Positions 5,914 through 34,232 of a DNA stretch of 34,232 bases are shown piece after piece. A program made the position numbers and the translations under genes. The notes beneath the pieces are model-generated. The model made no database searches. It was not told the origin of the DNA and saw nothing but the letters and a program-made list of their open reading frames with translations. Numbering within the stretch: position 1 is the first letter of the stretch; each line of letters starts with the position of its first letter. This DNA comes from an uncultured virus (IMG/VR IMGVR_UViG_3300020048_000069) (taxonomy: Duplodnaviria; Heunggongvirae; Uroviricota; Caudoviricetes), in IMG/VR virus record IMGVR_UViG_3300020048_000069. One strand, given 5' to 3'.

Positions 5914-6978
5914 TTATGAGTTGCCATGAGTTGTTACTGGTTTTTGTACTGTATCCTGTGACGGCATGTTCCCGATAAGTGATACCCTGGCAGCACCAGA
6001 TACATGCTGATAATGTTTCCTCAGCGTTTCAGGAGAACTTCCGACAATCTCGGATAGTGTTTTGTAATCTGCACCAGATTCAATCGCCGTCGTCACAAAG
6101 AAATGCCTCAGATCGTACATCCTCAGCCGGCGAGTTATCCCGGCCTTCTTCTTTGCAATCCTCCACGCTGTAACCAGCCTTAATATTTGCCGACCATTTT
6201 GGTGAATGATGTATCCCGACGGAACCCCGTCTTTTAATTTCCATGCTTCCAGTTCAGATAAAAATTCTGGATGAATCGGAACTTCCCGGCGTTTTGGACC
6301 GCCTTTATCCGCAGATGTAATCTGAATGGTTCGTGTCTCAAATAATACATGATCCCACCGGAGCGAAAAAAGTTCGACTGCCCCAGGTCTTAATCCGGTG
6401 TACCATGCGATTTTGATTGCACGGAATAATCTCTCGTTTGCATGTTTCAGTATTGCATCTGTTTCAGCCAATGTCGGTGGCTGGATAACTGCATCATTCG
6501 ATGGTGGCAACTGGTAATCACGGATATTATTTAATGGTATCATCGGCGGGCGGCGCTTGACTGCCCAACTCATCACGGATTTAATATCCGTCAACTCACG
6601 GCGGATCGTGTTCATTCGGACTGTTTTGTGTCGCTCTCTGATGTACCTGTCAAGATCGTCATACGATAAAGCCATTGCTTTGACTTGCCCTAAAACAGGG
6701 ATGATGATCGAGTAAAATCGTATCTTGCATAGCTTTTCAGAATTGGGATTGAAATTATGGTGGAGGATATAATCACCGACTAAATCATGGAAGAAAGGAC
6801 TTTCGTCATTATCTGCTCTTGGTTTTGTCTTCTTGAAATCCAGTCCATTATCCCTCTCCCTCGCCTTTGATTCTGCGATTGCTCCCCTACCGAAATATTC
6901 CCACCTGAATTTACTCTTTTTCTCAGGATCATAAATCTTGACGATCCACCGGCCATCTTTGAGTTGGTGAACACTCAT
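5914..6978 (-). CDS. int: Tyrosine recombinase (phage integrase)
   Basis: N-terminal arm-binding-like domain; YTGLRPG..EL, YDLRH, HY motifs; adjacent att site. Confidence 0.93.
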   Translation of the reverse strand: MSVHQLKDGRWIVKIYDPEKKSKFRWEYFGRGAIAESKARERDNGLDFKKTKPRADNDESPFFHDLVGDYILHHNFNPNSEKLCKIRFYSIIIPVLGQVKAMALSYDDLDRYIRERHKTVRMNTIRRELTDIKSVMSWAVKRRPPMIPLNNIRDYQLPPSNDAVIQPPTLAETDAILKHANERLFRAIKIAWYTGLRPGAVELFSLRWDHVLFETRTIQITSADKGGPKRREVPIHPEFLSELEAWKLKDGVPSGYIIHQNGRQILRLVTAWRIAKKKAGITRRLRMYDLRHFFVTTAIESGADYKTLSEIVGSSPETLRKHYQHVSGAARVSLIGNMPSQDTVQKPVTTHGNS

Positions 6979-7239: not shown

Positions 7240-7902
7240 TTATTTGTCGTTGAATTTACTCAGCATATAAAGAATTTGCATTTGTGATGTCCTGAATTCA
7301 CATTTTGCGGCGTCTAAAACCGATTTCAACAATTCTGGATGATACGAAAAATCTAACGTTACCGAATGATCATTATTACAGATGAAATCTTTTGTGAGCG
7401 GAAAGTCGTCACTTCCAGAAACTGGATTTATTGAAACACCAGGTGGCAACCCAACCGGTAATCTCGGTGGCTCAGCTTTAATCTTTACCGTTGATATTTT
7501 CGCTTCGGATTTCTTTGATTCTGCTGTTATTCTTTTCCTCACTGCCTGACATTTTTTACACGTCCGTTCCCTGCCCCCAATGCAATCAATATTTTTATAA
7601 AAATCTTCCATTGGTAATACCTCTTTGCATATACGACATACTCTTGTCGTTTCATTCTCATTAACTGTGATCGTTTCAATCTCTTCTGTAAACATTTTGA
7701 CTCCTTTTTTAATTTGACTGCAATTGCCACAGGTATCAGAATACTGCGCTCGGTACTGATTTATACCGTTGTATTTTGCCAGTTCTTGGCGACGTTCGCA
7801 GGCAGAACGTAGCATTTTGCAATGGTATATTCCACAGAACCAGTCATAATGTATGGCTGGCAATGCTGCTTTATGCAAATCTTGTATCATTTTTAACTCC
7901 AT
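7240..7902 (-). CDS. Hypothetical Zn-finger protein
   Basis: CRICKE..F..CKKC motif; start uncertain (7902 or 7914). Confidence 0.55.
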   Translation of the reverse strand: MELKMIQDLHKAALPAIHYDWFCGIYHCKMLRSACERRQELAKYNGINQYRAQYSDTCGNCSQIKKGVKMFTEEIETITVNENETTRVCRICKEVLPMEDFYKNIDCIGGRERTCKKCQAVRKRITAESKKSEAKISTVKIKAEPPRLPVGLPPGVSINPVSGSDDFPLTKDFICNNDHSVTLDFSYHPELLKSVLDAAKCEFRTSQMQILYMLSKFNDK

Positions 7903-8348
7903 ATTTGGTTCCATATATTGGCGGCCTTCATCCCCTCAATAGCGCATTCAGGATATTCCCCCAAATCTGAAAACCGTTCATAAATATCGACTTCTGTTGC
8001 AATTAATCTCTCTATTGCTCTAACCTTCCGGTTATCGGCATTGTGCGCTATAAGTTCACTCCTTACACATTCGAGTTGTTCGGTAGAAAAAATTAAATAG
8101 TTGTGGATGTGTAGATTTTTATGATCCCAACCCATTTCATCACAGAATAGAGTTATTTTTTTCTGGACAAGAGCAATTTCCTTTTGATTCAAATCCCCAG
8201 GGAATGCAGCAAGCGCGGCCATCGCAGCAGCGTTCATGTTTGCATATAACCCTGCTGCAATAACGTCATCTGTTGAGGCGTCTATAGCTTTTTCTGCTAT
8301 CGCTGAGGCTATTGCAATTCGGGATATCACGGTTATCAATGAGCGCAT
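7893..8348 (-). CDS. Hypothetical protein
   Basis: AGGAG SD; helical sequence. Confidence 0.6.
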   Translation of the reverse strand: MRSLITVISRIAIASAIAEKAIDASTDDVIAAGLYANMNAAAMAALAAFPGDLNQKEIALVQKKITLFCDEMGWDHKNLHIHNYLIFSTEQLECVRSELIAHNADNRKVRAIERLIATEVDIYERFSDLGEYPECAIEGMKAANIWNQIWS

Positions 8349-12730: not shown

Positions 12731-13226
12731 TTGTTTTTTCCTTTTCTCTCGATGCTGAAAAGTTTGTTTTTTCGTGATTGGCTATTTGGTTGTGAATTTG
12801 CGATAACGCATATTTACGCATTTCTACCAAAGATTCAGCCCATTGCTTCGGAGTAAAAATAGCAAACCCATCACTTTCTTTAGGATACAAAACCTTGACT
12901 TTAAACCGCATAATATCAAAAACTGTTTTATCTACTGGGTTTCGTTCGTTCGATAATTTGTACAACAAAAGAAGTCCATATATATCTGCTTTCTCTGCGA
13001 GGCGTTGTATGATTCGCGCATGTTTGTATTGTCCATGATCAATCGCTGCCTCTATGATAGCAATAGGTTCTTTAAAATTGTCTTCCCATTCGATAAAACA
13101 TGCTGAATCCAAATCAATCATAGACAGTTTTCCAGCGTCTTTGTAATCAATAAATCGTTTTATAGAATCTCGTCTATGCCAAGCAGAAAATGATAAATCG
13201 CGCGTACCATACATTTCCTTTTGCAT
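12717..13226 (-). CDS. Putative PD-(D/E)XK-like nuclease-fold protein
   Basis: IDLD..IE..PIAIIE; TGATG coupling to the upstream MTase. Confidence 0.45.
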   Translation of the reverse strand: MQKEMYGTRDLSFSAWHRRDSIKRFIDYKDAGKLSMIDLDSACFIEWEDNFKEPIAIIEAAIDHGQYKHARIIQRLAEKADIYGLLLLYKLSNERNPVDKTVFDIMRFKVKVLYPKESDGFAIFTPKQWAESLVEMRKYALSQIHNQIANHEKTNFSASREKEKTNDRT

Positions 13227-14677
13227 CAAATCCTCCAAACGATTATTTCACGAGTGAGGACAAGGCATTTTTTGTTTTCCTTCGCCCAGATAACCATTTG
13301 CGCGTTATTCTGTTGGCTTTCGTAAGGAACAGAATATCTCATTTCGACTGGCAATTTTACCATTTTTAGCATATCACCAACATGATCAGTGTAATCGTGT
13401 GTTTCATTGGTTTTCCATTGGGTAGGCTGGATGATCAGTGCTATATAAGCGTTTTCGGCTCTTGCACGTTTGAGTTTTTCGGCATACATTTTTACAAGAC
13501 TTGACAACTTTTCATTAAAAGTATCCAATTCCATATTTGCCAAATCATCAGCGTCTTGGCTGTATTGGCCTTGCGCCTGCAACCAATACGGCGGATCAAG
13601 ATAAACCAGCTTAACATCCTTCCATGTTGGCGGAGATAGAACGCCATCTTTAATATCGTGTTGACGAATATCCGAACGAATATCAACAGGTTTGCGGTCA
13701 GAAACCAGATAACGGCGCAACCTGGTTTTGCATAAATCAATTGTTGAACCTCCACCACCAAACGGGTCAATCACGATATCAAATGGCTTTGTATAGAGAT
13801 ACAGCAGGTTATCGACAAAGCTGATTTCACTATTCCCAAAGTGATTCACTTGATCACTGCGTTTCTGCTGCTTCCAAATATTGTAAATCGGCGGTTTGAA
13901 ATACTCATCCATGTGGTTTGCCTTAATCAACAACCGTTTGTCGAGTTTGTAAACGCCTAAGCTATTGGAGTCATCTTGTTCATCATCCTCAAACTGCCTG
14001 TTTTCATTGTCTTGAGTGAGTTCTGGATTTTCCGACAAAACCGGATTTTCGGCAACTGTGCCGTTTTCCCCGTTTCGTAGTAAATCGAGAAACTCACGAA
14101 TTACCTTTTCTGAATAACCGATTGCACCCGCTATTTCATCCTGCGAATAACACCCCATCCACATATTAAACGCCGTTTCCCGCAATTCAACTTTCAAATC
14201 CTTATCAATGCGGCTGGTAGTTTCCCTGATATACCGTTCAGATCGGCTATAATCTTTAGCCATATCTTTCTTGAGTTCAGCCCTGCCTTTCTGGTCAAGG
14301 CTTTCCATTTTTGCTCGATACTCATCGCGTATCAACTTTTTGAGTTCCTTTTCGGTTTGCGGTTGACCATGCCGGAAATTGGAACGTGCCGATTTGCGCT
14401 TAATAGCGTGAACATCTAACTTGCCATCAAATATAAATCCGCTGGTATCCAGATATTCCACATCAATCGTTTTAAGACCGCATTCCTTATGCGCCATCCA
14501 ACGATGCCATCCGTCTAAAAGAATATTGTCTTGATTCAACAGAATTGGCGGGAATTCTCCACCTGCAATAGACATTGCGTATTCTTGTACTTTGGCCGGG
14601 CTTTGTGACTCAGTACGGGTATAAAAATCTTTGTTAAAAACAACTTCGCTGACTATGATAGAAATAACTTCGCTCAT
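13226..14677 (-). CDS. ParB-like N-domain + DNA amino-methyltransferase
   Basis: FPPI..LLDGWHR (ParB); DPFGGGGST (motif I) followed by DPPYW (motif IV). Confidence 0.85.
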   Translation of the reverse strand: MSEVISIIVSEVVFNKDFYTRTESQSPAKVQEYAMSIAGGEFPPILLNQDNILLDGWHRWMAHKECGLKTIDVEYLDTSGFIFDGKLDVHAIKRKSARSNFRHGQPQTEKELKKLIRDEYRAKMESLDQKGRAELKKDMAKDYSRSERYIRETTSRIDKDLKVELRETAFNMWMGCYSQDEIAGAIGYSEKVIREFLDLLRNGENGTVAENPVLSENPELTQDNENRQFEDDEQDDSNSLGVYKLDKRLLIKANHMDEYFKPPIYNIWKQQKRSDQVNHFGNSEISFVDNLLYLYTKPFDIVIDPFGGGGSTIDLCKTRLRRYLVSDRKPVDIRSDIRQHDIKDGVLSPPTWKDVKLVYLDPPYWLQAQGQYSQDADDLANMELDTFNEKLSSLVKMYAEKLKRARAENAYIALIIQPTQWKTNETHDYTDHVGDMLKMVKLPVEMRYSVPYESQQNNAQMVIWAKENKKCLVLTREIIVWRI

Positions 14678-16936: not shown

Positions 16937-17635
16937 TTAAATTCCTCCTAAAATTTTGTTTTTGATGTACGCTAAATCCGGTTTTTCGATCGGTGACAGT
17001 TTGCCTGAGCGGTCTTTCGCACACGATCTTTCAATTGGCTGTGTTAAAAAACACCGATGCTCTATACCATCATCTGATGCTCTTGATTCCATTAATAAAA
17101 CTTCATCAAAATAACTTGTCAACCGTTCCTTTAGAGACGATCCAGAAATTGCAGGCCCGATATATCGGCGGTTGGATTCATCTTTATCAATCGTGACAAG
17201 TCCTGTGAAAATAACAGAATGTGTTTGCAGATCACGGAAACCTTTTATTATATGAGTCATGAGATTATTGTATTCCCCCCACATGGGGAACGAGTCTGAT
17301 TTCGATGGATATTTAGACTGCATGGCCTCCACACACCTGGCCGACAATTCCGTGAGGCTATCCAAAAAAATCCAAGACCACCTTTTACCCTCCGGACTGA
17401 GGACATATTGATATGCCTCTTTCATTTCAGCGAAAGAACCAATCTCAAATCCCTCCACTTTTCCTGATCTTACAAGATCTCCGATTGCCAGTAATCCTGA
17501 TTCAGCAGATAAAACCAGAACCTTCTCATTTTCAGGAATCGTTCTGATCAAGCTGGTTTTGCCGATACCTGCTGGCCCCAGGACTAAACACGTAAATCTA
17601 TCCACAGATTCTTTAGTTATTGGTCTGAGAGCCAT
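16937..17635 (-). CDS. Sak4-like AAA_24 ATPase/recombinase
   Basis: GPAGIGKT, LSAESG, IFLDSLTE, AKDRSG. Confidence 0.85.
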   Translation of the reverse strand: MALRPITKESVDRFTCLVLGPAGIGKTSLIRTIPENEKVLVLSAESGLLAIGDLVRSGKVEGFEIGSFAEMKEAYQYVLSPEGKRWSWIFLDSLTELSARCVEAMQSKYPSKSDSFPMWGEYNNLMTHIIKGFRDLQTHSVIFTGLVTIDKDESNRRYIGPAISGSSLKERLTSYFDEVLLMESRASDDGIEHRCFLTQPIERSCAKDRSGKLSPIEKPDLAYIKNKILGGI

Positions 17636-18362
17636 TATTTGCATCCTCCTTTTTTTTTAATTTACACCTTATATTGGCTTCTCTACATCGTTTTAGTCTT
17701 TTTTCTTTTTCTTCGGCGGTTTCATTGGTTATTCTGTTTAAAAAATATCTACGTTTGTTTTCACTGCACCGCCTATCGGATTCCCTACTTTTCATGAGTC
17801 TCAATTCTCGTTTCTCAGGTGTTTCGTTCTTTTTTCTTTCAATCCAATATTGCTTGTTGTATTCAGTCTTTTCTTTTTTATGTGAAGCGTTATATTCGAT
17901 GGCCCATTTTTCTATACGATCTTTGTTATCCTGTCTATTTTCTTTAACACAAACTCTACATAATGATTCTTTCATTCTGGTTTTATATGTTTTATTAAAA
18001 GAAAAAACATCTTCACTCAAATATCGTTTACATCTATAACATTTGATATATTCTGGATGACCAGTTGCCTTAAACGCTCTTTCTCTTCTATGAAGTAAAA
18101 GATGATAAGCTCTATCTTCACAAATAACTAAATTATTTGGTGAATTATTTAGTTTAACCCCATCTACATGGTGAACAACGGCATTTTTCGGAAGTTGTTT
18201 GGCTAATATTTTTTCAGCAACAAGAATATGTTCTCTAACGTATCCATTTACATTGGCTCTTGGATTGCATTTATCAGATATTAATAGATACCCATCTTTA
18301 TCTATAGTTTTTCCGCCATTCCAATTATGATGATCTTCTTTCGGTAAAAACATCAGATACAC
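17613..18362 (-). CDS. HNH (homing-type) endonuclease
   Basis: REHILVAEK..VVHHVDGVKLNN...NL..H..H, plus CxxC pairs; AT-rich. Confidence 0.85.
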   Translation of the reverse strand: MYLMFLPKEDHHNWNGGKTIDKDGYLLISDKCNPRANVNGYVREHILVAEKILAKQLPKNAVVHHVDGVKLNNSPNNLVICEDRAYHLLLHRRERAFKATGHPEYIKCYRCKRYLSEDVFSFNKTYKTRMKESLCRVCVKENRQDNKDRIEKWAIEYNASHKKEKTEYNKQYWIERKKNETPEKRELRLMKSRESDRRCSENKRRYFLNRITNETAEEKEKRLKRCREANIRCKLKKKEDANNGSQTNN

Positions 18363-21876: not shown

Positions 21877-23157
21877 ATGTTTGATACTAAATATCAATTT
21901 TTCGATGATCTCAGCGTTGATGAATATCAATCGCTGAAATCATCAATTGAAACACACGGCGTTCTGGTGCCGGTTGAATACGATGATGCCGGTAATGTGC
22001 TGGATGGACACCACCGCTTGAAGGCTTGCGCTGAACTCGGTGTCACAATCTGGGGACGCATGATCCGACCAGGATTATCCGAGGCAGAAAAAAAGAACCA
22101 TGTTCGGATTTTGAATATCGCCAGGCGGCAGCTTACCAAAGATCAAAGGGTTAAACTTTGGGAAGAAATGCGTGCCGACGGCATGACGCTGGCGGCCATT
22201 GCTGCGGCGGACGGTACGGTAAGCATCAACACGGTGAAGAGTGCAATTGATAATTCAACTTTGCAAAATTGCAAAGTTGACATCCCAACCAAAACCATCG
22301 GCAAAGACGGCAAAGCCAGGAAGACGAAGTACTCCAAAACCCCAAAATTCAAACATACCTATATCCACGAAAACGAACTTGAAAAAATCCTTGCACTGCC
22401 AGAAGAACAACAGACGGCAGTTCTTACAGGTGAAAAAACACTTCCTGAAATTAAATCAGATGTGAAAAAAGAACAAATCCAGCAGCGAAAAGAAGCAATC
22501 GAAACAACACTTAAATTCGAAATCAAGAATATCCCAAAAGTACAATGCACAAATGCAATTGATTTTCTATCCGACATTAAAGACAATAGCATTGATTTAT
22601 TAATCACAGATCCTCCGTACTCCACAGACGTTGATGATATTTTAGCGTTTGCTCAGTCATGGCTTCCGGCAGCATTGAATAAAGTCAAGGATACTGGGTT
22701 CGCCTTTGTATTTATTGGCGCATATCCAGAGGAAGTTAAGGCATATCTGAATATCGAAACCCCTACTCAAATGCTCGTTTGGGAGTATAAAAACACTCTC
22801 GGCCAGAATCCAAAAGAAAGATATAAACTCAATTACCAGGCAATTCTATTCTATCGCATGAAGAATTCTGGAGACCTGAATATTGATTTGACATCTGAAC
22901 AGTGGGCCGTACAAAGCATTAACGCACCCGACGGCAGGCTTGGGGATCGTTATCACGAATGGCAAAAACCAATTGAATTGGCAGAACGACTAATCAGACA
23001 CACAACAAATGAGGGTGCATCTGTAATTGATCCGTTTTGTTGTACCGGCACGTTTCTTTTAGCTGCTGCAAAACTTAATCGAAACGCCAATGGTTGCGAT
23101 ATATCGAAAGAAAATCTTGAAATAGCAGTTAAAAGAGGATGTGTTTATGCCGGATAA
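21877..23157 (+). CDS. ParB-like N-domain + beta-class N6/N4 DNA methyltransferase
   Basis: VLDGHHRLKA, N..RR.L; IDLLITDPPY, H..QKP..L, DPFCCTGT. Confidence 0.88.
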   Translation: MFDTKYQFFDDLSVDEYQSLKSSIETHGVLVPVEYDDAGNVLDGHHRLKACAELGVTIWGRMIRPGLSEAEKKNHVRILNIARRQLTKDQRVKLWEEMRADGMTLAAIAAADGTVSINTVKSAIDNSTLQNCKVDIPTKTIGKDGKARKTKYSKTPKFKHTYIHENELEKILALPEEQQTAVLTGEKTLPEIKSDVKKEQIQQRKEAIETTLKFEIKNIPKVQCTNAIDFLSDIKDNSIDLLITDPPYSTDVDDILAFAQSWLPAALNKVKDTGFAFVFIGAYPEEVKAYLNIETPTQMLVWEYKNTLGQNPKERYKLNYQAILFYRMKNSGDLNIDLTSEQWAVQSINAPDGRLGDRYHEWQKPIELAERLIRHTTNEGASVIDPFCCTGTFLLAAAKLNRNANGCDISKENLEIAVKRGCVYAG

Positions 23158-26916: not shown

Positions 26917-27777
26917 ATGACTGATTCTGTTTTAACACCAAAACTTTCAGATTGTCAATTTCAAAAATTCATCCAGGCAGGATTGTTCTCATGTGATGCT
27001 GACGTTGTTCTTTTGACGAGAAAAGAGAAGCAAGCGGCTTATAAAAAAGCATGGAGTAAAGATAACCCTGAAAAAAAGAAAGCATCAGCGAAAGCATACC
27101 AAAAAGCTAATCCAGAAAAAAGGAAAGCATATCGTGCTGCACATCCAGGCAAATCAATAGCAACGAATAAAACATGGCGTGCTGCAAATTTTGAAAAAGT
27201 GAACGCAACAAATAAAGCATGGCTTATTGCGAATCCTGAAAAAGTGAAAGCACGAGTGAAAAAAAACAACTCTGCAAGTGTTCGATATGATGTTTACAGA
27301 GATAGATTGCAAAATTACGAAAATATACTTCAAGACTCAGATGGTATTCTATTGGTTGGTTGCGTGTACTGCGGTAAACAGTTTACCCCTACGAAAATAC
27401 AGGTAGATAATAGAATAAGTGCAATCAATGGAACGCAAGTAGGTGAAAATCGTTTCTATTGCAGCCAGCTTTGTAAGATCGCTTGTCCAATATATCGGCA
27501 ACAAATACGCTATAAATTTCAGCAAGTCGGCCATACCCGTGAGGTTCCTGCTGAGTTCAGACAGATGGTATTACTTAATAGAAACTATACTTGCGAAAAC
27601 TGTGATTCAGATGAAACTGGCCTACATGTTCATCATATCAACGGCTATACCGAATCACCTATGACAATGGCTGACTTATCGAACGTAAAAGTCTTATGTG
27701 CGAACTGTCACAAAGCAGTCCACTCTATACCAGGCTGTTATTTCGTAGATTATTCATGTAAGAACCAAAAACAATAA
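26917..27777 (+). CDS. HNH endonuclease with ANPEK-type repeats and Zn fingers
   Basis: CENC..LHVHHI..N...LCANCH..H; GGAG SD; upstream TTGACA (26804) and hairpin 26852-26881. Confidence 0.8.
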   Translation: MTDSVLTPKLSDCQFQKFIQAGLFSCDADVVLLTRKEKQAAYKKAWSKDNPEKKKASAKAYQKANPEKRKAYRAAHPGKSIATNKTWRAANFEKVNATNKAWLIANPEKVKARVKKNNSASVRYDVYRDRLQNYENILQDSDGILLVGCVYCGKQFTPTKIQVDNRISAINGTQVGENRFYCSQLCKIACPIYRQQIRYKFQQVGHTREVPAEFRQMVLLNRNYTCENCDSDETGLHVHHINGYTESPMTMADLSNVKVLCANCHKAVHSIPGCYFVDYSCKNQKQ

Positions 27778-28044
27778 AGATAGTAAAGGTCACTGGTGTC
27801 TGACAAAATTCTTTCTTGGCTCACGAAACGTAAAGCATGAGCTACAAACCACTTTGTATCTATTTTATTGTCCACAAGGAGTGTCATTCATGTTTAATTT
27901 CATTTGCCTATGGTGTCTTACGCTGAAATTCTATTGCCAAGGCGACACGCTCCCAGATGCCTACGAGGCGGCGGTTTTGACTTCATCGGGGTTCAGGAGA
28001 GTGATTCTTTCAAAGAAACTTAAAAGACAGCCGTGGAGGTTGAA

Positions 28045-29058
28045 ATGATTTATAAATGTCCAGACACAATTGAAGAATTTGATAAACAGTTAGAACAGCT
28101 TCAATTCTGTAAAAAAGAACTTTACAACCAAGCAAAGTCCAGAATTGAATCCGGTGTCGCAAAGAGTGTCAGCGAAGCGTCAAGGCAGTTGGCGGAAGAA
28201 ACTGGAAGAAGTGCGGCGACGATCAGAGACGCAATAATCAGAGAAGATAAAAATAAAGGTGTGGGACTTCCACACCTCTCAGGAACTAATAAATATCAAC
28301 CAGTTACACCAAACTTGAATAATCTTGAATTATCACACGGTGGCGCTCGCATTGGTGCAGGCAGACCATCTGTATCATCAGAAAAATTAACACAAGAAAA
28401 AGTTGAAGAAGTTTTTGAAAGCCAGCCTTCTTTATTCGAAATCGAAGAAATCCAATTGTCAATCATACCAGAACCAGAGATTGAAATAGCAGTCGATTTA
28501 ATCGACGAACACCCGGAAGCCGCTACGGCAATTATTATCAAACATAACCACCGAGCAATCGGCACCGGCGAAAACGAATGGTACACGCCAATCGAATACA
28601 TCCAAGCCGTTAAAAAAGTTTTCAGCGAAATTGATCTTGATCCTGCATCCAGTGAACAAGCGCAAGAAACTGTTATGGCTAAATCATTTTTTACAATCAA
28701 TGATAATGGACTCTCAAAAACATGGAACGGCAAAATATTTCTTAATCCACCGTACACACAACCTGACATTAAGAATTTCATACAAAAAGCAGTTGATGAA
28801 TATTCATCCGGCAATATTCAGGAAGCAATCATTTTAACTCACAATTATACCGATACGAGTTGGTTTCATTCTGCTGCTTCTAAATGTTCTGCAATTTGTT
28901 TCACTCGGGGGAGAATTGGCTTTTTAAGTCCAGAAGGTAAGAAAGCCGCTCCAACTCAAGGCCAAGCATTTTTTTACTTCGGAGATACACCAGATAAATT
29001 CGTAAATGTTTTTGCTGATTATGGACAAATATTCACACCTAAAACTCCAGGATATTAA
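28045..29058 (+). CDS. Phage N6-adenine DNA methyltransferase (phage Dam-like family) with N-terminal extension
   Basis: NEWYTP, DLDPAS, GL...W.G.IFLNPPY, GRI.F; GGAGG SD; HGGARIGAGRP motif. Confidence 0.88.
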   Translation: MIYKCPDTIEEFDKQLEQLQFCKKELYNQAKSRIESGVAKSVSEASRQLAEETGRSAATIRDAIIREDKNKGVGLPHLSGTNKYQPVTPNLNNLELSHGGARIGAGRPSVSSEKLTQEKVEEVFESQPSLFEIEEIQLSIIPEPEIEIAVDLIDEHPEAATAIIIKHNHRAIGTGENEWYTPIEYIQAVKKVFSEIDLDPASSEQAQETVMAKSFFTINDNGLSKTWNGKIFLNPPYTQPDIKNFIQKAVDEYSSGNIQEAIILTHNYTDTSWFHSAASKCSAICFTRGRIGFLSPEGKKAAPTQGQAFFYFGDTPDKFVNVFADYGQIFTPKTPGY

Positions 29059-32437: not shown

Positions 32438-32725
32438 ATGACTTTGGAAAATCAAACAAAATATCATATAGCGGCAGAAAAGATCGCAGACATGATAAAT
32501 GAAAAACAATCGGCATACGGGGATAGCTTCGGACAATCAGGAAAAGTGCTGGAGCTTCTATACCCAAGCGGTGTGCTGGTGGCGCAATACCAGGACATGC
32601 TCTGTATGATCCGGATCATCGACAAACTGTTCAGGATTGCAAACGATAAAAATGCTTTTTCTGAAAGTCCTTATGCAGATTTAGCAGGATATTCACTGCT
32701 TGGATTGTGCAGTCAGAAGGATTAA
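32438..32725 (+). CDS. DUF1599-like all-alpha nucleotide-modification-associated protein
   Basis: K...YGDSF..RI.DKL.RI..ES...DLAGY. Confidence 0.65.
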   Translation: MTLENQTKYHIAAEKIADMINEKQSAYGDSFGQSGKVLELLYPSGVLVAQYQDMLCMIRIIDKLFRIANDKNAFSESPYADLAGYSLLGLCSQKD

Positions 32726-32941
32726 CGCCAATGGACGTGCGGATCACCCAAGACATTCACTATACGCATAACAGGCAGTCGGAGCCTATTTTCGTTATGA
32801 CATTTAACAGGGGACGAGTTTCAATTCATCGTCCATGGATTGCACTATCCCGGAGTTGATTGCAATCAAAAATGCAATAGATTGTTTTCTCTATGAACAA
32901 GATAAAAATTAAACCAGTATCCTCAAAGGAGGGTGTAACAA

Positions 32942-33943
32942 ATGCAACAAATTAAAGCCAATGACGATGTAATCAACAACCTGAATTTCTCTCTCAAAAC
33001 CTATGACGCAATTACTAAAACTGTTGTCATGACGAAAAACCGGCTGGCACACATGAATTCCGAAGAGAAACCAGGAAACAATCAGTTTATAAAGAACATG
33101 GAATCTCTTCAAGGACAATTGACGCGAGCGACCTTGCGCGAATTGGAGTACTGGCCTATCTGGACAGAATGGCTCAAAGGTGTTCCTGGTATCGGGCCGG
33201 GGATCGCCGGGAATCTGATCCTGCTTTATTACTACCGATTCATCGCTGTCTGTAAGGATTGCGGTTCAGATGTTATCAAGAAAGAATCTGAACCCAAAAA
33301 GAATAAAAATGGCAAAGCTCCGGTAATAAAGCTGGATGAGAACGGCGAAGAGAAAAAAGTCATGACGTTTTTCTGTCCAACTTGCAACAAGAGCATCAAA
33401 GGCGAAGGTGTTCTGAAACATCGAATTGATAAAACCACAAAGGATTTCTCGAACGTTTCCAAGTGGTGGGCTTATCTTGGCCAATCTGTGGTTGATGGCA
33501 AAATGCCGAAGAGACAGACCGGGGTAGTTTCAAACTGGTCTGCGAAAGGCAGGCAAACAGCGTATATGATCGGCATTTCGTTTGAACACCAGAAGGATAC
33601 CAGTGGCAACCCATATCGAGAATTTTATGATGCGACAAAAAAGAAGTTACAGGCCGTATATCCAGAAAAAACCGACGGCCATAGACGGGATATGTCGAAG
33701 ATGCGAACAGCTAAGTTCTTTCTGTCTCATTTCTGGCATGTGGCGCGGGAGCTGGAAGATAAAAGCACACGAGGCATTTATAGCGATGTGATTCTGGCGC
33801 ATACCGGCATTATCCCGCCGTATTACTGGAAGAATGATGTACATGTGCCTGTTATTGAAGAGGAAGCGCCGGTAGTTGAAACGAAGAGACGGATAGCTGC
33901 TGCGAAGAAAGCGGCTAAGTTGTTGGCTGCAAGCAAGGTTTAG
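32942..33943 (+). CDS. Tas-like (TasA-type) IS110/Nop-related RNA-binding protein, no nuclease domain, Zn-ribbon insertion
   Basis: AAGGAGG SD; coiled coil, WLKGVPGIGP HhH, F.NVSKWWAYLG..DG..PKR..G..NW, YR.FYD..K, GH...R..K.FL.H.W; directly followed by the dual-repeat array. Confidence 0.8.
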   Translation: MQQIKANDDVINNLNFSLKTYDAITKTVVMTKNRLAHMNSEEKPGNNQFIKNMESLQGQLTRATLRELEYWPIWTEWLKGVPGIGPGIAGNLILLYYYRFIAVCKDCGSDVIKKESEPKKNKNGKAPVIKLDENGEEKKVMTFFCPTCNKSIKGEGVLKHRIDKTTKDFSNVSKWWAYLGQSVVDGKMPKRQTGVVSNWSAKGRQTAYMIGISFEHQKDTSGNPYREFYDATKKKLQAVYPEKTDGHRRDMSKMRTAKFFLSHFWHVARELEDKSTRGIYSDVILAHTGIIPPYYWKNDVHVPVIEEEAPVVETKRRIAAAKKAAKLLAASKV

Positions 33944-33980
33944 TAGGATAGCAAGAGTTTGTTCTTTGAAAATTGATAAG

Positions 33981-34232
33981 TGCAAGACCGATATAATAAT
34001 GAAACCCACGCAGCATGTGCAAGACCATGAATGAATTGAAACCCAGTGAACCAATGCAAGACCACTTTGATTTTGAAATCCAGTGGGGAAATGCAAGACC
34101 AGAACCTCAATGAAACCCACATCGGCTATGCAAGACCACTCTTCTTCTGAAACCCATTTGTCCTGTGCAAGACCATCGCAAGTTTGAAACCCATTGATAT
34201 TGTGCAAGACCATGATTGCATTGAAACCCACG
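33981..34232 (+). repeat. TIGR-like dual-repeat guide-RNA array, 37-bp unit TGCAAGACCA-N9-TGAAACCCA-N9, at least 7 units, truncated by the window end
   Basis: 10-mer at 33981, 34018, 34055, 34092, 34129, 34166, 34203; 9-mer at 34000, 34037, 34074, 34111, 34148, 34185, 34222; 13 complete spacers, all different and all exactly 9 nt. Confidence 0.92.

Follow-up and report, generated by a model that had tools for sequence, protein, structure and literature searches.

A probable dual-repeat TIGR array behind a TasA-type gene at the end of a temperate phage sequence

We analysed a 34,232-nt stretch of DNA from an uncultured virus (IMG/VR record IMGVR_UViG_3300020048_000069; hereafter the window), whose last 252 nt carry an array of alternating short repeats. 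With a probability of about 0.86, this array is the start of a dual-repeat TIGR array with a TasA-type gene directly upstream, carried by a temperate phage whose host is probably Desulfobacteraceae-like. TIGR arrays have been described as two alternating repeats of 8-12 nt with spacers of about 9 nt, lying beside a gene for a Nop-domain Tas protein (Faure 2025, PMC12045711), and, on the transcribed strand, each of the two repeats opens with UG (box D) and closes with CCA (box C) (PMC12045711). Feature by feature, the array of the window fits this published dual-repeat definition. The kind of system has been known since 2025, and 6,685 TIGR arrays have been catalogued (Xu 2026); the present locus is one more phage example, real and well-formed, which the window end truncates. 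New in a minor way are the 37-nt period, due to an edge repeat of 10 nt, a clade-wide Cys4 zinc ribbon in the Tas protein, and hints of array turnover. As RNA-guided DNA binders that are compact and PAM-free, TIGR-Tas systems currently attract interest for genome engineering, and their natural targets and the way in which spacers are gained are stated as unsolved questions (Faure 2025, PMC12045711; Xu 2026).

Results

The array at the window end

As listed in Table 1, two repeats alternate on the + strand with a strict 37-nt period over 33981-34232, in the order TGCAAGACCA (10 nt), 9 variable nt, TGAAACCCA (9 nt) and 9 variable nt, and the array continues past the window end. The 10-nt repeats are called edge-type and the 9-nt repeats loop-type, and the spacers behind them A and B, respectively; the grounds for this assignment are given below. 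Seven copies of each repeat are present, which make up six complete edge-A-loop-B units and part of a seventh. All 13 complete spacers are 9 nt long and all 13 differ, and of the 14th only 'CG' precedes the window end. The TG and CCA ends (box D and box C) are found in 13 of the 14 repeats, the exception being the first edge-type repeat with its CCG end; the interior of the loop-type repeat is A-rich (AAAC). The alternating repeats, the two variant copies and the 13 spacers were read exactly as an earlier note on this DNA had listed them. The array opens with a full-length variant edge repeat, and its other end lies beyond the window.

In a period scan of the window, only 33974-34232 showed the 37-nt register, and Tandem Repeats Finder called only the last 2.3 copies of the array. 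When one mismatch was allowed, the edge motif occurred elsewhere in the window as scattered singles (three on the + and one on the - strand), as did the loop motif (six on each strand). No Rfam family matches the array, and no second array, of the kind that several relatives have upstream of tas, was found in 32600-32960. Of the sequencing runs listed for the stretch, none is an RNA run. By eye, neither repeat has its reverse complement among the spacers, and none of the window's 24 18-mers is a clear guide for a ribosome-binding site with ATG. A 194-aa minus-strand ORF across the array was rejected as an artefact of the repeats.

Table 1. Coordinates of the tas gene, the leader and the repeats in the window
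Feature	Position	Strand	Description
tas gene	32942-33943	+	333 aa; ends 37 nt upstream of the array
Tas protein features	zinc-ribbon insertion at about aa 99-165; Y280/H287		coiled-coil N-terminus; GIGP helix-hairpin-helix; predicted Cys4 zinc-ribbon insertion; Y280/H287 in the C-terminal loop
Leader	33944-33980	+	37 nt, from the tas stop codon to the first edge repeat
Edge-type repeats (10 nt)	33981-33990, 34018-34027, 34055-34064, 34092-34101, 34129-34138, 34166-34175, 34203-34212	+	TGCAAGACCA; copy 33981-33990 is the variant TGCAAGACCG, with G at 33990
Loop-type repeats (9 nt)	34000-34008, 34037-34045, 34074-34082, 34111-34119, 34148-34156, 34185-34193, 34222-34230	+	TGAAACCCA, including the first copy (34000-34008); copy 34074-34082 is the variant TGAAATCCA

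The adjacent Tas protein

The protein encoded directly upstream of the array shows the features by which the Tas family is recognised, namely a Nop-type RNA-binding domain, a coiled-coil dimerisation region and homology to solved Tas proteins. In a phmmer search against the PDB it matched 9mty_A (E 8e-29), which by its title is the cryo-EM entry of TIGR-TasR, and the TasH chain 21kl_A (E 2e-5). All of the top 10 Foldseek matches were TasR or TasH chains (probability 1.00, TM 0.45-0.54), followed by the IS621/ISCro4 (IS110) recombinases; the AlphaFold model, built on a 5-sequence alignment, is of moderate confidence only (pLDDT 73, pTM 0.70). No Pfam family reached the cut-off, and the one PHROG found is labelled 'transposase'.

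The TasR alignment starts at TasR residue 115 and at residue 19 of the window Tas; since the match begins after the RuvC domain of TasR, that domain is absent here. No HNH or RuvC Pfam match was obtained at E up to 10, and residues 8-68 are modelled as a pair of long helices, which form the coiled coil. In place of the roughly 6 residues of TasR (192-199), the window Tas has about 70 (aa 96-168), and this insertion holds a CxxC...CxxC pattern and, by alignment and model, five short strands. The four cysteines are invariant in all 120 homologs listed, and no conserved His or Asn lies beside them that would suggest a hidden HNH. Because RuvC and HNH are absent, the N-terminus is a coiled coil and residues of a hidden HNH are lacking, sequence and model together mark this protein as TasA-type, that is predicted to be nuclease-free, with a putative structural zinc ribbon. 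The word 'zinc' is absent from the main texts of Faure 2025 and Xu 2026, whose supplements may cover the clade or the contig; the clade-wide ribbon stands against the description of dual-repeat Tas proteins as keeping a compact Nop core (Xu 2026).

In the phmmer alignment, Y280 and H287 fall on Y289 and H296 of SpTasH, which are reported as the catalytic residues for pre-tigRNA processing (PMC13421893). Y280 is present in 110 and H287 in 109 of the 120 homologs listed, and both are invariant in the 5-sequence alignment. Y280/H287 are thus the predicted Tyr/His processing dyad (CTD5) of the dual-repeat Tas clade. It was also seen that the window Tas ends in a lysine/alanine-rich helix (aa 311-331, 33870-33940) which is absent from shorter relatives, and that the Tas of locus L017 has a lysine-rich C-terminal extension of similar length.

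The leader and the region upstream of tas

The leader between tas and the array contains two repeat-like remnants, AGCAAGAG (33950-33957) and TGAAAA (33967-33972). This gap had been proposed to be a decayed unit or a leader. The remnants are out of register, lying 17 and 14 nt from the next repeat and not 19 and 18. The proposal is partly right, as the core TTTGTTCTTTGAAAATT (33958-33974) is identical at all 17 nt in L017, whose Tas is 62% identical. In the related locus L001 the gap is shorter and holds an in-register loop-like repeat, TGAAATCTA, 18 nt before the first edge repeat. A sigma-70-like match starting in the leader (TTGATA at 33973, 16 nt, AATAAT ending 34000) is not in excess, with 3 such matches against 2.8 expected from shuffles.

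Further upstream, a perfect 14-bp palindrome, TTGATTGCAATCAA, lies at 32856-32869, 72 nt before the tas start, where it could serve the tas-array unit as an operator or promoter region. Spacer A7 (TGATTGCAT) matches 8 of 9 bases within this palindrome, which is chance level for a 9-mer.

Phage context, related loci and host

The window is a temperate phage with an integrase (5914-6978) and a repressor-like regulator, and it further encodes a primase, a helicase, Sak4, a Cas4-like exonuclease, several methyltransferases and a tail-fibre-like protein. Three of its genes are DNA methyltransferase-like (13226-14677; 21877-23157, with a ParB-like N-terminus; 28033-29058) and three are HNH endonuclease-like (7240-7914, 17613-18362, 26917-27777), a set which suggests heavy investment in anti-restriction and homing functions. 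The window's Tas was also located on a contig of 96,232 nt.

A search of IMG/VR with the repeat pattern yielded one contig (L001). Searching with the Tas protein added 4 more viral loci from 18 candidates, 11 metagenome loci from 592 and 3 genome loci from 90. A credible Tas relative is encoded in 18 of the 19 fetched loci, L019 giving only a weak match of 55 aa at 25% identity. Dual-repeat arrays with spacers that differ were found in 15 of 17 related loci, namely 14 of L001-L016 and L017. The arrays among L001-L016 have a period of 36 or 37 nt and lie upstream and/or downstream of tas; in L015 and L016 no array was found within the short DNA around tas.

The closest relative with a full locus is L017, on a 37.6-kb contig (C476) from a Desulfobacteraceae MAG, which has the integrase and other genes in common with the window. 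Its array uses the same two repeats and comprises 34 units, the first edge being TGTAAGACCA and the last TGCAAAACCA. Locus L018 comes from a Desulfobacterium MAG. The MAG binning of these relatives suggests that the host of the window phage is probably Desulfobacteraceae-like.

Variant or truncated edge repeats close the arrays of the relatives, and a ribosome-binding site with the next gene's ATG comes directly after them, as it does behind the last repeat of C476; by eye, no terminator follows the arrays in the sequences viewed. The gene directly after the terminal edge repeat is conserved (L017:5252-6058, L001:843-1517, L002:4203-4883 and L006:3622-3834, the last one cut). Its product combines a globular N-terminal part with a coiled coil at the C-terminus, and neither a Pfam family above the cut-off nor a PHROG matched it. 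The gene may encode a Tas-associated partner, or the next module may simply start with it.

Several side observations were made on the repeats of these loci. At L003:3825-3894 and L004:95-215 the arrays run into the tas frame, and the 3' end of the L003 tas and the 5' extension of the L004 tas translate repeat units (ETH/IETQ motifs); arrays running into the tas reading frame have been described for some loci (Xu 2026). The box motifs drift in coordination: at L005:3908-4300 the repeats are TATAAATCA/TTAAAATCA, with TCA replacing CCA in both; at L011:3415-3765 they are TGCGAGCG[A/G]/TGAAACCC[G/A]; and at L006:3284-3580 the loop has become TAAAACCTA by a G to A and a C to T change together, with the edge remaining TGCGAGCCA. 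The period scan also picked up a tandem repeat upstream of tas at L003:2132-2215 (GGGAAAGGCAGAA-like), which was rejected as a TIGR array, being an unrelated purine-rich repeat.

Search for targets

TasR cleavage leaves 8-nt 3' overhangs (Faure 2025, PMC12045711), and therefore each spacer should pair with the 3' half of its strand in an 18-bp site. Derived in this way, one strand of the site would read 5'-A + reverse complement of B-3' (geometry ii). Since the phrase 'displaced 3' unpaired segment' in PMC13421893 could be read the opposite way, both geometries were searched, geometry i serving as the control. Spacers were paired either within a unit (phase 1) or across the edge repeat, B with the next A (phase 2).

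For the 6 phase-1 and 6 phase-2 pairs of the window, the best matches in either geometry had 3-5 mismatches of 18, as expected by chance, in a search space of 82,231 nt (the window and L001-L016, arrays masked). For cross-targets, 126,792 nt of DNA from related phages was searched with 187 phase-1 and 186 phase-2 guides, allowing gaps of 0-2 nt. At 0/1/2 mismatches, phase 1 gave 0/0/5 matches in geometry ii and 0/1/4 in geometry i, and phase 2 gave 0/0/6 and 0/0/3; the means of ten shuffled-partner controls were 0/0.2/7.4 (ii) and 0/0.4/5.6 (i). Cross-targets with up to 2 mismatches were hence at or below the shuffled-pair level, with no excess.

Exact 18-mers were also looked up in IMG/VR. 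In geometry ii, guides 1 and 4 were found at no locus, guide 6 at 5 loci (3 distinct sequences in unrelated genes) and guide 2 at 3 loci (2 distinct sequences in unrelated genes); in the control geometry, guide 6 was found at 15 loci in 5 sequence groups and guide 4 at none. The predicted geometry thus gave no excess over the control (guides 1, 2, 4 and 6 versus guides 4 and 6). Guide 4 was found in none of 23 genomes from the family of genome G001 (Desulfobacterales), and in 1 of 301 genomes of the order, with 1 mismatch, where its backwards control also occurred once. A megablast search of window positions 1-25000 against phage records gave no match.

According to the earlier note, an enrichment of paired spacers over shuffled pairs would fix phase and targets; no enrichment was seen over either shuffled or wrong-geometry controls. 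It had also taken missing enrichment, together with identical arrays in diverged relatives, as evidence against guides; enrichment is indeed missing, and the relatives' arrays are clearly not identical. According to Xu 2026, natural targets are undeterminable for now owing to short spacers and missing context. Our blank searches agree with that view and go no further; the real partners are probably missing from the sequence databases.

Variation among arrays

Variation was first of all seen close to the window itself. A strain whose tas is 98% identical is represented in sequencing runs from another study (X4, X6) by a contig that matches 33191-33989 with 13 differences and 1 gap in 800 nt, and after the first edge repeat its spacers A and B differ from those of the window. 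The unit at 34166 also stands behind a different unit in the source-like runs X1 and X3, and X1 has a separate 703-nt contig with more repeats of the window type, contigs which cannot separate strain variants from duplications. No 18-nt unit is common to the window and its closest relatives.

The downstream arrays of L007-L009 share their first and last units and differ in the interior. Shared spacers occur with different partners in these three loci, and one unit lies upstream of tas in L009 and downstream in L008. Near-duplicate units (up to 6 mismatches of 18) make up 7 of 1470 pairs within loci against 5 of 14,514 between unrelated loci. At L007:1332-1439 a whole 36-nt unit is exactly duplicated in tandem and followed by a copy with one spacer mismatch, and the three-unit block at L007:1080-1187 resembles 1188-1295 in diverged form. 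In C476, one spacer is present in three copies. The recombination breakpoints of the relatives lie inside loop repeats as well as edge repeats; those in loop repeats separate A from B, contrary to what one would expect if all pairs had to address a single 18-bp site each.

This variation argues against a static minisatellite and, anecdotally, hints at duplication and repeat-mediated reshuffling. We tentatively put forward, as a possibility, that arrays of the zinc-ribbon TasA clade do not grow from one end as CRISPR arrays do; units would instead be duplicated and diverge, recombine in either repeat, re-pair their spacers and move across tas, with the terminal units fixed. If this is true, guide diversity is generated internally and then selected, which bears on how TIGR arrays get their spacers.

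A rival reading is that the locus is a real TIGR locus in which most guides are drifting products of duplication and reshuffling, few or none having a current target, and that the array may act mainly via partial or single-spacer matches. The enrichment of near-duplicates within loci, the exact tandem duplicate in L007, the threefold spacer in C476, the new pairings among L007, L008 and L009 and the blank target searches all point that way. However, with host and rival elements unsampled, searches for 18-bp sites can be expected to come up blank, a point made likewise by Xu 2026; TasR mismatches in either spacer are reported to impair cleavage of both strands (PMC12045711); and the window's own 6 units contain no duplication, the within-locus near-duplicates stemming from relatives. 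We hold a largely targetless guide set to be rather unlikely.

Edge and loop repeats

The published TasR structure shows an A-rich loop interior and, in the edge, a further base pair which covaries among arrays (PMC12045711). Among 16 parsed sources, the edge-type repeat has C:G at positions 3:6 in 13 and T:A in 3 (L005, L010, L012), and the loop-type repeat has A:C or A:A there. The arrays of L005 and L006 start on an edge-type repeat that is 5'-truncated. Full, variant or 3'-truncated edge-type repeats close the arrays of L002, L005, L006, L007-L009 and C476, the truncated form (TGCG...) being that of L006 and L007-L009 and the variant TGCAAAACCA that of L002 and L017/C476.

Because of the A-rich loop rule, the covariation from C3:G6 to T3:A6 and the boundaries of the relatives' arrays, TGCAAGACCA is assigned as the edge repeat and the A-rich TGAAACCCA as the loop repeat. 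The tigRNA would therefore run from the middle of TGCAAGACCA via A, loop and B to the middle of the next TGCAAGACCA. The earlier statement that edge and loop cannot be told from sequence is refuted by these three lines of evidence. The 10-nt edge owes its length to an extra A, unpaired between the two edge pairs, in comparison with the 9-nt edges of most relatives; this lengthens the usual 36-nt unit to 37 nt and is common only to the window, L001 and L017.

In the opposite phase, TGAAACCCA would be the processed edge, TGCAAGACCA the loop, and (B_i, A_i+1) the functional pairs. The loop-like repeat ahead of the first edge repeat in L001 fits such an arrangement, as does the finding that blocks shared between the relatives' arrays keep phase-2 pairs as often as phase-1 pairs; the attempt to derive the phase from spacer pairs staying together was itself set aside as uninformative, breakpoints being present in both repeat types. 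Against it stand the A-rich interior that marks the loop in the published structure, the extra covarying pair confined to the TGCAAGACCA family, and edge-type repeats at the starts and ends of the relatives' arrays. The opposite phase is quite improbable.

Discussion

The reading of the spacers as guides and not as a minisatellite, already proposed in the earlier note, is supported by the adjacent Tas gene, by the box D and box C ends, and by the same architecture with different spacers in relatives. That the array is instead a non-coding minisatellite or a protein-binding iteron array (replication or partition sites) with no RNA guide function is very improbable: no target was found and short, regularly spaced repeats do resemble iterons, but the array lies directly behind a Tas homolog, its linkage to tas recurs in 15 related loci in which the repeats have drifted and the box ends have been kept, the spacers are fixed at 9 nt and unconstrained in sequence (position-wise composition), and two repeat types that alternate and share in a covarying pair would not be maintained in a minisatellite. 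On the whole, the earlier observation and its guide reading stand; its verdict on edge and loop has been overturned, and the paired-spacer search that it proposed gave no enrichment.

By homology with the characterised systems, the following mechanism can be proposed for the TIGR array of the window. Transcription of the array, probably together with that of tas, would be on the + strand. In every repeat the two ends, box D (UG) and box C (CCA), would be bound by a dimer of TasA, and TasA's own Y280/H287 loop would cut the transcript inside each edge repeat TGCAAGACCA. The product would be a 37-nt tigRNA consisting of the 3' half of one edge, spacer A, the UGAAACCCA loop, spacer B and the 5' half of the next edge. 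In an 18-bp DNA site, spacer A would pair with one strand and spacer B, in the adjacent half-site, with the opposite one. As TasA has no nuclease, the complex would bind and block DNA, for example by repressing transcription, rather than cut it. TasA proteins have been described as RNA-guided repressors in reporter assays (Xu 2026 bioRxiv); the repressors characterised are stem-loop types and do not belong to the clade of the window. The locus illustrates how edge and loop can be assigned by comparing sequences alone, and leaves the target question unsolved.

Comparison with known systems

The closest counterpart is the dual-repeat TIGR-TasA of the FpTIGR type (Flavonifractor plautii; PMC12045711), which is described with the same alternating edge and loop repeats, the same UG and CCA ends and two 9-nt spacers per unit, and whose array likewise lies beside a nuclease-free Nop-domain protein and is phage-borne. 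The window differs in its 10-nt edge and 37-nt unit, the typical unit being 36 nt, and, going by the published description of the FpTIGR-type TasA, in the predicted Cys4 zinc ribbon of about 65-70 aa after the helix-hairpin-helix.

TaTIGR-TasR (Thermoproteota archaeon, PDB 9MTY) is the best match in sequence and fold, over coiled coil and Nop domain, residues 19-95 and 169-297 of the window Tas aligning with 115-192 and 199-322 of the chain. Unlike the window Tas, it carries an N-terminal RuvC nuclease of about 110 aa, and at the site of the zinc ribbon it has only about 6 residues. In SpTIGR-TasH (Salicola phage CGphi29; PDB 9W03, 9W04, 21KL) the C-terminal Nop region aligns residue for residue, including the Tyr/His pair, over the only 60 residues that align by sequence; its HNH nuclease and 8-nt spacers are unlike the window.

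CRISPR arrays are alike in that a repeat-spacer array adjoins an effector gene, is processed into guides and varies in its spacers among strains. TIGR arrays differ from them by two alternating short repeats, by split guides of 9+9 nt on opposite DNA strands, by the lack of a PAM and, as far as the published descriptions reach, by the lack of known adaptation genes. In L007-L009, moreover, both terminal units are conserved and the interior varies, so that, unlike in CRISPR, there is no single polar end. Box C/D sRNA-Nop5 and the IS110/IS621 bridge-RNA recombinases share the Nop-type RNA-binding fold and a bipartite guide layout with the window locus; unlike them, the locus has neither a fibrillarin/L7Ae partner nor a DEDD transposase domain, and its guides are arrayed.
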